Below, in pieces: positions 7,986-48,414 of a stretch of DNA of 64,000 nt. Made by a program: the position numbers and the translations under genes. The stretch's first letter is position 1. Every line of letters begins with the position of its first letter. Location of the stretch: the NCBI GenBank assembly GCA_964016885.1, contig OZ024740.1, positions 175,522,001-175,586,000 on the forward strand, in the 5' to 3' direction. The DNA comes from Eledone cirrhosa (Eukaryota). Under the pieces are notes generated by a model. That model made no database searches, was not told the origin of the DNA, and was given only the letters and a program-made list of their open reading frames with translations.

Positions 7986-9085
7986 AACGAAGGAAATGTG
8001 GTAAGGAACCAGGTGGACCATAACGCTCCAAAGTACTCAATACTTGGGGTAGTAGAGTGGGTAATAGGAACCGGTAAGACCCCCACCCCCTCCCCTAGTC
8101 TATGATAGATTTGGCGGACTCCGCTTTTTATAGCAGTTGGTTTAGACCCCGGATACTTGCCCCATTTTCCCGACCGCTCCCACTATTTTCCGTGCCTTCT
8201 ATATTTCTTAGTGGCACTTATGCCTTATTTTCTCGTTCCAGTATTTCTTTCTTCGCTTTTCTTTTGGGCGGGGTGGATCCTGAATTTATTTTTCCGTATT
8301 CCACCCTTACTTCGTACGAACTTTCATGTAGCTTGTTTAAGATCTTTTAGAGTTAGCATTAGTATATTTTTTTCGGGACTCAGAATTATTATCTCGTACT
8401 AGTTTACTTTGCTGCACTGGGTGGTTGCTGGCATTGTGCCCGGGATAGAAACCTTTATTATTTGTTTCGTGGTAGTCTCTTTAGTATTTTGGCCCCACTT
8501 GTTGACCCGTCACCGTATGATTTACGTACTTATACCTCTTAAAAGGGTCCTCGCCTATCCGTCCCACCTAGTTCTTTTACTTATTTCGTTATTTCTTTAT
8601 TTATTTCTTTACTTCTTTACTTCTTTCTTTCTTTCTTTATTTATTTATCTAGCCTAACAATAGCTAGAGACTTAGGTCGTAGAATTTACTTTTTTCTTTA
8701 CACTTATTCGCTTTTCTTCACTCCCAGTATTTTTTCTTTCATATATATTTTTACCCCTCATTGGTCTACCTACTGTTCCGACTTCCTCCCCCTCCCCCTC
8801 CCCAGTATCTTCTTTGACCTCATGCCCAGCTGTAGCTGGCACTACTAACGCTTGATTGGGTCTACTCCACCCCCTCCCCTCTTTCTCCTACTGGCAGGTT
8901 TAGCCACCATCTCCCTACTAATTTGCTATCACAGAATTACTACTGACTTTTGACAATCACTTTGACCATATATGGAATTACCCCTTGAGAAGATCGGCTA
9001 TTTAAATACCAGGATAAATTTTCGTTTAGTCCAGAATTAGCCGTCGAAACGGCTTGAGCTCAGCAGTCGGGGTCTTACCGGTTCC
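7986..9085 (+). mobile_element. HHR-bearing non-autonomous element, family A, with inverted 3' tail at its left end
   Basis: TA-flanked; 8064-8083 is the reverse complement of 9069-9088. Confidence 0.8.
8980..9073 (+). ncRNA. Type I hammerhead ribozyme, U3-A8 core variant
   Basis: ACCCC-TTGAGAA-GA(T)CGGCTA/TAGCCGTC-GAAA-stem III-GTC-GGGGT. Confidence 0.8.
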
Positions 9086-9163
9086 TATATATATATATAT
9101 ATAACTAAGTCAGAATCAAATCTCTGGATTAGAGTTTTAAATTACCAACCTTATAACTATAAG

Positions 9164-9240
9164 TTTGCTGATACGAATCTCGCTTCGTTTCATCACCGAC
9201 ATGTGCAGTATAACAGCCCACAGGATCCTCAGTCAGCAAA
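9164..9240 (-). ncRNA. Type I hammerhead ribozyme
   Basis: 8-bp stem I TTTGCTGA/TCAGCAAA, CTGAGGA, GAAA, stem III ACGAA/TTCGT, GUA. Confidence 0.8.
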
Positions 9241-10230
9241 TGTGGATACTGTTCACGACACATCTAACCTCATGGATAGAGAGAAAGCATTTGAGCTCAG
9301 AAGAAAATTCTCTATTCTTCTTTGAGCTAATACTATTATTATTATTACAGTGAATAATAATAATAGTATTAGCTCAAAGAAGAATAGAGAATTTTCTTCT
9401 GAGCTCAAATGCAAATATATATGTATATATATATATATATATATATATATATATATATATATATATATATATATATATATATATATCAGTGTTGCTATTA
9501 TGTTTCCTCCCGTTGTATTGTATATATATATATATATATAAATATATATATATATATATATATATACATATATACATATATATATATGTATATATATACA
9601 TATATACATATATACATATATATATATATATATATATATATATATATATATATATATATATATATATATATATATATATATATATATATATATTTAGAAA
9701 ACAGACTAAATAAAGATGGCGTAAGCATACAATACAACGGGAGGAAACATAATAGCAACACTGTCGATGCTGCAGATGTGCAACGAAAGAACTTTGATAG
9801 ACTATATATATGTGTTTGTGTCTATATTGTATCTGTATTTTTGACCGTTGGTCAGTCAATGGCAACATTGAGGACCGAATAAATTAAATTAACCGATATA
9901 AAAGAAACAGAAGCGAAAACAGTGAGTGTGTTCTGTTATTAATTCTGGCAATATTACACAAATATGACCCTCCCCAAGTAAAACAACATTTGTTTCGACA
10001 CACGATTTCATATTAAAAACCTCGCAAAACTAATTCATCGCCGTTATATATATATACATATATACATAGATACATATATACATATATACATATATATATA
10101 TATATATATATATATATATATATATATATATACATACATATATATATATATATATATATATATATATATATATATATATATATATATATATATATATATA
10201 TATATATGTATATATATATATATATATATA

Positions 10231-10790
10231 TAAACGGAAAAAATGAAACGATATTTCATTTCCCACTCTTAGTACGGCTGTTACTTAAATATAAGTATGT
10301 ACACGTACATACATATATGTATACCGACGTACAGTAGTATGTATATATATATATACATACATGCAGACATATATATATGCACGTATGGATTCACCGAACA
10401 TTTATTATAATGCTCGGTGTGTTTGTAAACAAACATCCCGTATTAAGCCGTAGTGTCTAGCAACCACCGTTGCTCGTTTGTTCAACACTGACAAAGGAAC
10501 GCTGTACTAGTTTCAAGCTTGTTAGCTATCGTCAGCAACGTATACCTTCCTGCCAGATTGTTGAACGTATATACTTACCTTATGCATATTAATGGCTGAG
10601 TAGCCCAATTTGCATATCGAGTGGGTTAATCAGCCGGGGGCACCGAAAACGATAAACGGAAAAATGAAACGATATTTCATTTCCCACTCTTAGTACGGCT
10701 GTTACTTAAATATAAGTATGTACACGTACATACATATATGTATACCGACGTACAGTAGTATGTATATATATATATACATACATGCACACA
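10231..10790 (-). mobile_element. HHR element family B (1.3 units, 422-bp period)
   Basis: Direct repeat 10231/10653; homologous to 16780-17258, 48210-48925, 61695-62833. Confidence 0.8.
10499..10541 (-). ncRNA. Minimal type I hammerhead ribozyme (family B)
   Basis: ACGTTG-CTGACGA-T-AGCT/AGCT-T-GAAACTAGTA-CAGCGT. Confidence 0.88.
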
Positions 10791-11115
10791 CACACACATA
10801 TATATATATATATATATATATATATATATATATATATATATATATATATATATATATATATATATATATATGTATATATATATATATATATATATATATA
10901 TGTATATATATATATGTATATATATATATGTATATATATATATATATATATATATATGTATATATGTATATATGTATACATATATATATATATATGTATA
11001 TATATATATATATATATATATATATATATATATTTCTATATATATATATTTATATATATATATATTTCTATATATATATATATATATATATATATATATA
11101 TATATATATATATAC

Positions 11116-45460: not shown

Positions 45461-45619
45461 TCATCCACGAATGCATATAAGTAAACAATTTTCCAGTTAT
45501 ATATGTCAAACGTCATATATAAATACACATATTAAAAAAGTCTACTGCTATCAGTCACAATCGAGTATGACTTGGTAGTGTCTAGATTATTATCATTGTT
45601 GGAAATACCTTCTTTATCG

Positions 45620-45990
45620 AAATGGTTAACTGGGTTTGCATCTTCTTTTTTACGGCAAGAATAACTTATCATAATATTTGTCGGAAAATGAAAAGAAATT
45701 AAATTTAGAAAAGCTTTGACAATATTTTTTCGTACTTTTATACTGAAAATTAGATTTTCCAAATTTTTTGGTTCATTTTATGTCGGATAATGTTAGAGAA
45801 AATTGTGTATTTTACTTTATAAATGAAGCTACTATTACAAAGAGCATTATTACAATAATAACAAGTATTAATTCTTATAACCTCAACTGAATATAACGAT
45901 ATAGGTTTATGAATATTAAAGATTAAATTTCGAAGAATATTCAGTGTGTGGTTGGAATTCTTATTCATGCAAAATTTATTTCATTTGGTT
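45620..45990 (-). pseudogene. Highly decayed Penelope-like RT thumb fragment
   Basis: KNSNHTLNILRNL.. and KVRKNIVKAFLNLISFHFP..ISYSC, homologous to the 38083 ORF. Confidence 0.6.
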
Positions 45991-47430
45991 CTCGATAAAG
46001 CGACATTTATTCGTATTTAGATATGAAGTAATGTACAAAATATGGACTATAGTAAAATGAGTTTTAGCTGTAATTTGTAAGCATATTTCATTAAATAATT
46101 TTATGGCGTCTTTTCCATATCTATTTAATTCATGTATGGGTTCGTAACACTCAATGGAATCGTAGGCGTATCTTGGGCTTTTTCAAACAAGTTGGAATCC
46201 ATCCCCTCACTAGGAATGAACACAGCCGATTCCTCCCAGAAAAAGAGAGAGAAAGAGAAGGAGGGGAGAGAGAGAGAGAGAGAGAGAGAGAGAGAGAGAG
46301 AGAGAGAGAGAGAGAGAGTGTGTGCGTGTGTGTGATACGAAGCGAAAATAAGATAACGATGAAGAGTCGACTCCAGTGCTATTTCTTTTATTGATCCCGA
46401 AAGGATGAGACGCAATGTTGACCTCGATGTCATTTGAACCCAGAGAGCTGGAACAAATACTACAAACCATTCTATCCGACAGTCTAACGACTCTGTCAAT
46501 CCCCCGCGTTGACCATTAATATTACGTGAGACAAAATGGTCATCATTTCTGTATAAATCTCCATGCAAAATAAAAAATACTTTATAGGAAAGATTCAAGT
46601 AATTTCGCATAATTCTGCGATACCATCGTATAATATCACGGAAACCGCAACCAAAAGAAAATGGATTCCCATGCGCGCGTAAATAACTTAATGTCAAATG
46701 CACTGATGCATATGGTTTGGTTGGCGAAATCTGTAACTGTGAGGTGTTTAGTTATGGAAGTGTAAAAATCTACTGCAACTAAATAGTAGATCAAATCATT
46801 CTGTCTGGTCGTAATTGGGTACTGTGTTTGCCGTACACAAGGTTTCTTGCGGAGTCATATTGCATTTATTTACTCTTTCGTGAGGCTGCTTGCTTATTTC
46901 GGCCAGCATCATTAAGATACCAACCAAATAGAAAAAGGAGAGTGCACAATTATACGTTAATAGTGAGAGAAATGATTTCACGTGGGTAGAGAATTTATAT
47001 ATATACACACCATTAAAGCGCTTATATAAGTGCTTTGTGCGCATGCGCGAAATATGTGACATATTTAAAAGGAATGATATGCTTCTTTTACTGCTGATCT
47101 ATCCATCTTAGCATTGGCAGCAACGAAAGAATATAGATAATTATATGCATATTATGTATGCATATAAAATAAGCTTCATCGATTAGTAACAAGTGTTATG
47201 TAATATATTTTATATAGATATATGCATCTAAATTGATTGTAGGAATCAAGTCAAACGATTTGTATGGCTTATGACATAGGAAATGCTAACAGAGAAGTTA
47301 GTTTCCGACGTGCCATGTATATGAAGCTTCTTAAACCCTCTATTTATCTTTGTTATATATATATATATATACAGATAGTTAAAGAATGAAGAGTAACATG
47401 GTTGGCTGTACAACAAGGGCTTTATTTAAA

Positions 47431-47536
47431 GTACTGACTTTCGTTGATCAGGTGAGTCTAGAGTTCGCTAATCGCTTGAGGTTGCGTCATTCGATCTCCA
47501 TTACATTATTTACCTCTGGTCAACACATCAGAGTAC
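47431..47536 (-). ncRNA. Hammerhead with ~85-nt stem II and vestigial stem III (A9>U) in element 47372-47853
   Basis: GTACT-CTGATGT-GTTGA..TCAAC-GAAAGTC-AGTAC. Confidence 0.65.
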
Positions 47537-48414
47537 GTAGATATGAAAGTAATTCACTCGAGGCAAGACTTATATAGAAAAATAGCGTATAATCAAAACA
47601 ATAACAACAATAATAAAATAGCGTATAATCGTCAGTACTTTAATAAACCCCTTATTGTACAGCCAACCATGTTACTCTTCATTCTTTAACTATTATTACT
47701 CCAAGTAAAACCTGCATAGAAATTATCGCGAACTCGCTGCATAACTATGGAAGCATCTTGTTGAGTCAAACAAAGCCGTACGTTAAAACTATCCACGACG
47801 CAGAGTATTCACAACCTCTAACTGGATTACGTATAACGACAACTTGTTATCCCATATATATATATATATATTTTAAAAAGTAAACAGAGAACAAAAAACA
47901 GAAAAACGAAGAGGCAATATATCAAATTAATTAACGGAGTTAAAAACTCACATTAATCCCCCATTATTTAAGGAGCTCGAGGAATATATATTCCGGGCTC
48001 TTTATAAATCAACGTATAGAGAGAAGTACATATAGAGTTATGTGTTGAATCAGAGGGGATTGAACACATGTCTCTATGTGTACTTCTCTCTATATCTTGA
48101 TTTATATATAAATGTATATATATATATATATATAATATATATATATATATATATATATATATATATATATATATATATATATATATATATATATATATAT
48201 ATATATATATAAGTATGTATACGTACATACATATATGTATACAGACGTACAGTAGTATGTATATATATACATGCATGCACATATATATATATGTACGTAT
48301 GGATTTACCGAACATTTATTATAATGCTCGGTGTGTTTGTAAACAAACATCCCGTATTAAGCCGTACAGTGTCTAGCAACCATCATTGCCCTTTTGTTCA
48401 ACACTGACAAAGGA

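Follow-up and report, generated by a model that had tools for sequence, protein, structure and literature searches.

A minority of the genomic copies of a Penelope-like element (PLE) in Eledone cirrhosa begin at exactly the base that follows the predicted cut of the hammerhead ribozyme carried by the element, and self-cleavage of the element RNA is, as judged from sequence, probably the cause of this peak. The element, named family A, was found in a stretch of 64,000 nucleotides (the window; assembly GCA_964016885.1, contig OZ024740.1, positions 175,522,001 to 175,586,000, forward strand) of a 3.0-Gb, TA-rich genome. In a preliminary description of the window, three fragments were reported to begin at predicted ribozyme cleavage sites and were taken as fossil complementary DNAs (cDNAs) showing that the ribozymes were active in vivo. 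The three fragments belong to three different families, A, B, and C. Breakpoints mapped on the cleavage site gave a sharp one-base peak for family A and no clear peak for families B and C. The statement that inserts start at the cleavage site therefore describes a minority population of family A; it is not a rule, and it does not extend to B and C. In vivo activity is the best reading of that one class of family A arms but not a general conclusion, and it is unsupported for B and C. Positions were numbered with +1 as the first base 3' of the predicted hammerhead cut.

The family A ribozyme consists of stem I (ACCCC/GGGGU), the core UUGAGAA with a U3-A8 pair (starting at window position 8985), a long stem II, GAAA, a 6-bp stem III, and GUC. 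The features of a type I hammerhead are present (core positions 3 to 9 with the 3-8 pair, GAAA, an NUH triplet, and stems I to III), and the minimum free energy fold yields all three stems. N7 varies among copies (G, U, or A), and U3-A8 covariation is present; U3-A8 in place of C3-G8 is a described variant of PLE hammerheads (PMC4209133). The open reading frame (ORF) of 717 aa, taken from locus L372, starts at +191, 3' of the ribozyme. It contains RLRWRTFF (RWR, a conservative change from RWK), HSDKTGN (DKT instead of DKG), CNCPDRSIC (a CxCX5C linker), CNLCSEE (CxxC), and CKH (CxH), and YRDD and IY..YIG were recognised by eye. The marks of Hydra-clade PLEs are RW(K/R), DKT, the CxCX5C linker, and CxxC and CxH flanking conserved E and N (PMC8557442). 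A Pfam search with the protein returned 0 families, and its C-terminus was 34% identical (E 1e-22) to an ORF in the window whose GIY-YIG match is sub-threshold. Judged by these motifs, the hammerhead in the pseudo-long terminal repeat (pLTR), and insertion in (TA)n, family A is a predicted autonomous Hydra-clade PLE.

Family A is young, since the ORF copies are 99-100% identical; the tandem spacing is about 3.5 kb. Exact matches to +1..+25 were found at 7,527 places in the genome. A typical short insertion reads (TA)n, an inverted arm ending at +17 (the short arm), the junction, an arm ending at +97 (the long arm), and (TA)n. The two fixed 3' ends, +17 and +97, are 80 nt apart and are presumably priming sites. 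A subfamily, A2, is 69% identical to family A.

Breakpoints were counted in two samples drawn in genome order rather than by similarity. Similarity-ranked samples were kept out of the histogram because they favour complete matches; in the one for family A, 4 of 30 arms start at +1..+3. For the subfamily of the window copy, the anchor +20..+41 gave 2,789 matches, of which 90 loci were read; 11 of 66 rows (A2 subfamily or unrelated) were taken out by eye, and 11 of the remaining 55 A-type long arms start at -2..+3. For the main subfamily, 60 loci were taken from among the first of the 7,527 exact matches listed, and 5 of 63 arms with identical flanks (none at +1) were dropped, leaving 58 distinct long arms: 3 at +1, 13 at -3..-28, 36 at -35..-45, 6 beyond -120, and 0 between -46 and -121. 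The 44 short arms of this sample include 3 at +1 and 37 at -35..-45. The +1 class is thus a minority, about 5% (3/58) to 20% (11/55) of the arms that reach the site, and the two subfamilies differ (p 0.02), the rarer stopper being the one with a G-U pair in stem III.

Junctions near the site were then collected over the whole genome with a pattern requiring exact +1..+25 and mismatches at -8 and -10, which gave 269 matches. The first 100 were classified by eye as 27 strictly at +1, 24 symmetric (ACCCC-GGGG, +1/+1, the hyphen marking the junction), 9 at +1/-1, 6 at -2, 2 at -3, 3 at -3/-5, 4 at -5, 1 at -6, 8 at -7, and 16 read-through copies with indels. A script run on 30 fetched junction loci assigned 10 to +1, 5 to the symmetric class, 2 to -1, 9 to -2..-7, and 4 to read-through. 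The control pattern, which covered starts at +3..+9, had a total of 69 matches. Scaled up, this corresponds to about 161 junctions at +1 versus 10.8 per base at -2..-7 and 9.9 per base at +3..+9, an excess of about 15-fold. With the symmetric junctions excluded, 27 of 60 fall strictly at +1, one of eight positions scored (p 5e-10), as do 10 of 21 in the script set (p 9e-5). Base -1 is mismatched in 27 of the 36 non-symmetric junctions, and the other 9, with C at -1, are as many as chance predicts (9). The +1 start recurs in other kinds of junction: single arms of the form (TA)n-GGGG, which have neither palindrome nor microhomology (about 14 of the first 100 rows), filler junctions where both arms end at +1 (L040, L070, L262, and L345), and head-to-tail joins (L100, where ORF sequence is joined to +1). 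In the 44 two-armed inserts of the main sample, all 3 long-arm stops at +1 are paired with a short-arm stop (p about 7e-5, computed with 45 inserts), as expected if one RNA end limits both arms. Because the peak is still there when palindromic and microhomology junctions are left out, cDNA of self-cleaved RNA is the best reading of the +1 class.

Most family A arms cross the cut site and stop about 40 bases further upstream, at -35..-45, and their template was therefore uncut there. In 46 distinct single-arm loci adjoining (TA)n (first 100 pattern matches, by eye; the pattern reaches -49), no arm passes -46. An extra G was counted by eye in 6 of 12 junctions at -41, versus 1 of 13 at -40/-37 (p 0.03) and 2 of 27 at +1 (p 0.006). 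An extra G at the 5' junction of full-length L1 copies has been ascribed to the mRNA cap (PMC11702581), and the G at -41 is likely a cap trace as well. We infer that -41, inside stem II, is a capped transcription start. The position is the A of TTAGTC or TCAGTC, which we take to be initiator-like motifs, and the A2 subfamily has by eye the same -41 boundary, at TC-AGTT. An internal promoter in the pLTR is known for Penelope (PMC2377424). RNA starting at -41 is without the 5' strand of stem I and the core, and gives no hammerhead fold. Head-to-tail family A units of -44..+214 with identical junctions were observed at L349:957-1613, a 258-nt derivative that retains just the ribozyme's 3' half and was possibly copied from a small circle; these tandem units likewise use about -44 as an end.

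Copies that carry the ORF were scored separately. From 30 loci, the query (L371) was left out, and 7 of the other 29 end short of +1, so that 22 reach the upstream ribozyme (L400 was scored as read-through by eye). All 22 run to -82 or beyond.

The following findings weigh against self-cleavage as the source of the +1 class. In the main sample, 55 of 58 arms cross the site. Ends at -24..-28 are each about one-third as frequent as +1 (5/58 over five bases versus 3/58) and outnumber those at the bases directly beside the site, so the 15-fold excess is a local figure only. The two genome-wide patterns differ in capture rate, and +1 is the edge of the exact part in one of them. A 2-nt CG microhomology at -1/+1 is another way of describing the 24 symmetric junctions. 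The cut site of a type I hammerhead adjoins the stem III foot and the three-way junction, where a structural stop is conceivable, and families B and C are without a clear peak. For the Poseidon element PAc, the only PLE so tested in vitro, cleavage was dispensable, and no reads began or ended at the cut site in the data described in the available part of that report (PMC11167929). None of the 22 ORF-bearing copies stops at +1 (1 expected at 5%, p 0.32; p 0.007 at 20%), and none stops at -35..-45 (p 5e-10 at the short-copy rate), which strains the idea of the -41 start as the full-length template. The window's own copy is also ambiguous. The inverted family A tail ending at about 8083 had been described as starting at the first bases after the GUC at 9068, and it is indeed +1..+97, but 5 nt at the junction (ACCCC, 8079-8083) match the native sequence upstream of the partner arm, so that this copy alone fixes the breakpoint no better than to the interval +1 to +6. 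Of the five family A long arms in the window, this is the only one at the site, and the remaining four start at +28, +31, +39, and +72. The inversion at 11878, which had been set apart as not coinciding with the site, does lie off it, the arm there starting at +25 of its ribozyme.

The microhomology raises an origin at the DNA level, in which end joining (through CG at -1/+1 or the G run) or later hairpin collapse of the inverted repeats would place junctions at +1. The symmetric rows ACCCC-GGGGT (24 of the first 100) and the 5-nt microhomology of the window copy fit such an origin, and the palindromic fillers at L040 and L277 suggest fold-back processing. However, C is missing from -1 in 27 strict +1 junctions, no palindrome is present in the roughly 14 of the 100 rows that consist of one arm beside TA-rich flank, and longer palindromes nearby (GAGCTC and TCGA) gather fewer symmetric junctions. 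We consider a DNA-level origin improbable. The fillers between site-ending arms at L040 (16 nt) and L277/L278 (13 nt) are themselves palindromic, which suggests that one arm was copied from the other or that both were copied from RNA with an added 5' piece. Annealing of two cDNAs through stem II past its loop was also considered and was rejected, as no junction among those read keeps the loop.

A structural stop is unlikely. Reverse transcriptase would pause at the folded, possibly protein-bound three-way junction of the uncleaved ribozyme, and a further block at the top of stem II would give the -35..-45 class; only the ribozyme adjacent to the priming sites would be bound, and upstream ribozymes would be read through. 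This accounts for the 0 of 22 stops at the upstream ribozyme, and the predicted fold places -45 beside the stem II apical loop. A peak in family A, with its stable 6-bp stem III, and none in B and C, with stems of 2-3 bp, is in line with a stall, and the rarer stops in the subfamily with the G-U pair suit a stall as well as cleavage. On the other hand, pauses are normally spread, whereas the peak has one-base precision, -1 being uncopied in 27 of 36 junctions; with a stall at the stem III foot, the unpaired C17 should be copied before the stop; and the extra G, present at -41 but absent at +1, points to two different real RNA ends.

The same G bears on the idea that +1 is a minor transcription start or an end made by a host nuclease. 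An apparent internal promoter lies nearby (-41), and the Penelope pLTR has one (PMC2377424), but the extra G occurs in only 2 of 27 junctions at +1 against 6 of 12 at -41, and +1 coincides to the base with the position set by the NUH triplet. C-GGGG is also unlike an initiator. This last explanation is judged highly improbable.

Self-cleavage therefore remains the preferred explanation of the +1 class, and the +1 arms are likely cDNAs of self-cleaved RNA made by a side route, which does not set the 5' ends of full-length copies. The family A reverse transcriptase would run to the uncapped 5' end of the self-cleaved RNA. At a break in (TA)n, the two ends would serve as cDNA primers at the two tail sites, in most cases with a single RNA as template for both, and the two cDNAs would be joined head to head, so that the junction records the RNA 5' end. 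Three templates may be distinguished: (i) a capped RNA from about -41 in stem II, which would lack the 5' half of the ribozyme, would therefore not be cut in cis, and would be the source of the majority of short copies; (ii) the 3' fragment left by self-cleavage, with +1 as its first base, accounting for about 5-20%; and (iii) a long read-through, multimeric, or re-ligated RNA giving the ORF-bearing copies. As to the last, full-length copies would, by the breakpoints of the 22 copies, come from RNA that did not start at -41 and was not left in the cut state at +1. The candidates, which the counts do not distinguish, are multimeric read-through, a re-ligated circle, or a block that may act only at the priming-adjacent ribozyme; re-ligated circular RNA has been proposed for PLEs (PMC4209133). 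Cleavage in the germ line is thus likely real but a side route. A joint account is offered tentatively, as it is rather doubtful that all of its parts hold together: a capped start inside the element's own hammerhead would yield a disarmed, uncuttable RNA that seeds most short copies; RNA with the whole ribozyme would be cut in the germ line, and a dimeric enzyme would copy its 5'-OH product into cDNA, starting simultaneously at two fixed sites; and re-ligated circular or multimeric RNA would give rise to the ORF-bearing copies.

The published systems compared here are cited from the parts of the papers that were available. Family A and the Hydra-clade PLEs have in common a single ORF with a C-terminal endonuclease (EN; putative in family A, from motifs read by eye), the hammerhead, the (TA)n target, and partial tandems with an inverted 5'-truncated copy and a tail (PMC8557442). 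The family A unit of about 3.5 kb is larger than most Hydra elements (<3 kb), and its tail is 80 nt versus 30-40 (PMC8557442). In the available text of that paper the function of the hammerhead in EN+ PLEs is called unclear, and a breakpoint analysis is absent (PMC8557442). Family A also resembles PAc in vitro, in which two internal 3' sites bound the tail and the ribozyme lies just upstream (PMC11167929). For PAc, both target strands are cut and extended, reverse transcription has two internal start sites, and most product comes from uncleaved RNA (PMC11167929). Unlike the PAc RNA reads, the genomic junctions of family A pile up at the site, and the PAc ORF starts inside the ribozyme (PMC11167929), whereas that of family A starts at +191.

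The same type of inference is known from other elements. For the HDV-like ribozyme of R2, the 5' junction of the insert marks the cut and was read as evidence of cleavage in vivo (PMC3774820), and junction was equated with cut in the same way for twister variants in Perere-3 (PMC8501958). In those elements the cut sets the full-length 5' end (PMC3774820, PMC8501958); in family A it is seen in a minority of short copies, and the ribozyme is a hammerhead in a PLE. Full-length copies of family A do not begin at the cut (0/22), while its short copies have an excess of junctions there (about 15-fold), which family C does not. Type I hammerheads in PLE pLTRs, with dual motifs on opposite strands, have been noted, and in vivo evidence of cleavage in autonomous PLEs was said in 2014 to be lacking (PMC4209133). 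Self-processed RNA monomers of retrozymes have been shown in vivo (PMC4209133, PMC7229834, bioRxiv 10.64898/2026.07.22.740005); the available sections of these papers map no insertion breakpoints on the site and report no start inside the ribozyme. A literature search, which covered few subscription papers and no supplements, found no map of PLE insertion breakpoints on a hammerhead site. In L1 twin priming, two primers give an inverted 5' part. Family A inserts also have an inverted part, but the primers would be at fixed internal sites 80 nt apart, and the cDNAs overlap.

In vivo cutting by PLE hammerheads and its role in transposition stand open in the available literature (PMC4209133, PMC8557442, PMC11167929). 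Family A provides a direct test system, being young, with thousands of near-identical copies and intact ORFs, and it predicts exact RNA ends and their chemistry. It implies that cleavage can happen without defining full-length copies. The element class, the quantitative split, and the putative start inside the ribozyme are new, while the type of inference was known from R2 and Perere-3. If true, the joint account would amount to direct genomic evidence of in vivo cutting by the ribozyme of an autonomous PLE and to a promoter-inside-ribozyme switch that is absent from the available parts of the literature compared.

Family B consists of head-to-tail non-coding units of about 493 nt with two 3' ends, and its CUGAAGA/GAAA/GUA hammerhead is conserved in 33 aligned units; by unit structure and hammerhead it fits a tandem non-coding non-LTR retrozyme. 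In loci L001-L030, TCTCA(A)TTT precedes the TA run at both preferred 3' ends, q97 and q483, which are about 107 nt apart across the unit junction. The fragment at 14621 had been described as starting after the GUA. It lies near the site, but its alignment begins at 14910 (position -1, the last base of GUA), and a (TA)n run immediately precedes it. The UA of the triplet thus doubles as microhomology to the target, and the example is weak. Among 61 family B arms read (62 exact anchor matches in the genome), 3 start at -2..-1, that of the window included, and all have A/TA homology; with 0.5 expected, p is 0.015 with the window copy and 0.09 without it. The genome-wide junction pattern gave 1 match, and in the similarity-ranked sample no upstream unit ends at the site.

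The family C reference reads GAAACAATTGTC before the cut and AGTAC after it; the minus arm in the window is without CAATT, 5 nt of stem III, and reads GAAAGTC. The arm at 47631, said to start at GTC-AGTAC within 3 nt of the site, does so in position, but its first base is -3 (GTC), 3 nt to the upstream side of the cut, and a templated duplication precedes it. Cleaved RNA cannot template -3..-1, so this arm most simply derives from uncut RNA and not from a cleavage product. Only 3 of 49 family C arms lie within +2..-2, one being an internal deletion and one resting on stem I homology, and genome-wide junctions in -7..+1 form no peak (only 2 of 9 at +1; 4 of 9 at -7). Several family C ends at about -100..-107, at the front edge of the hammerhead (L187, L192, L193, L195, L240, and L246), were confounded by subfamily mismatch to the references, taken as artefacts of it, and not counted as stops. 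Taken as evidence, the three window examples thus come to a family A copy that holds as sequence and is individually ambiguous, a confounded family B copy, and a family C copy past the site.

Self-BLAST of the window was done on a masked version, as the unmasked version was dominated by (TA)n, and it showed the window to be dense in short repeats that sit in (TA)n runs, often as a pair of inverted arms. A motif scan found 15 hammerhead-like candidates. No hammerhead was among the matches listed (150 of 205) in an Rfam scan of the window, which were mostly microRNA models on simple repeats. Features of the window are given in Table 1.

Table 1. Coordinates of insertions, ribozymes, and junctions in the window
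Feature	Position	Strand	Basis
(TA)n target run, left flank of family A insertion	7938..7986	no strand	sequence
Family A long arm, +1..+97, 3' end at distal tail site	7987..8083	-	alignment to family copies
5-nt microhomology ACCCC common to both arms at inversion junction	8079..8083	no strand	comparison with L055, L380, and other copies continuing upstream
Family A second arm, about 1 kb of 3' untranslated region/pLTR and whole ribozyme, crosses cut site, ends at +17 (proximal tail site)	8084..9085	+	
Family A type I hammerhead, predicted cut after C9068, one stem III mismatch in window copy	8980..9073	+	fold, motif scan
A of TTAGTC at -41, the commonest 5' end among short insertions of family A	9028	+	junction counts
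(TA)n target run, right flank of family A insertion	9086..9103	no strand	sequence
Family B fragment, -1..+93, flanked on both sides by (TA)n; TA microhomology confounds its start	14621..14714	+	
Retrozyme-like family B unit (tandem non-coding repeat, about 493 nt) with predicted cut after 14910 in hammerhead 14905-14983	14817..15299	-	
Family C arm crossing hammerhead 47431-47536 (5 nt of stem III missing), templated duplication at junction	47372..47630	-	
Family C second arm, starts at -3, upstream of cut	47631..47853	+	
Older two-armed relative of family A; minus arm crosses ribozyme to +17, plus arm 5519-5577 starts at +39	4740..5577		
Two-armed family A stub, arms +72..+97 and -38..+18	20072..20149		
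Family A long arm starting at +28	49917..49986	+	
Family A-like long arm starting at +31	53987..54042	+	

Further type I hammerhead candidates from the motif scan are at 10535-10505 (-), 11485-11418 (-), 13856-13774 (-), 43686-43734, 53597-53645, 54243-54173 (-), 58211-58173 (-), 58331-58369, 59143-59177, 62077-62107, 62551-62581, and 63142-63186. Several of them sit in two-armed (TA)n insertions, and the candidate at 13856 also has a U3-A8 core. A broken PLE ORF at 37849-38974 (+), with the sub-threshold GIY-YIG match (E 0.0095), lies inside inverted arms (36996-37371 and 39215-39586); by its 34% identity to the endonuclease region of family A it is a putative second, older Hydra-like family. 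An ORF with a zf-RVT domain (E 4e-6) at 59342-60052 (+) is the 3' part of a non-LTR retrotransposon, and a large inverted pair of degenerate trinucleotide (GGT/ACC) arrays occupies 51593-52778.

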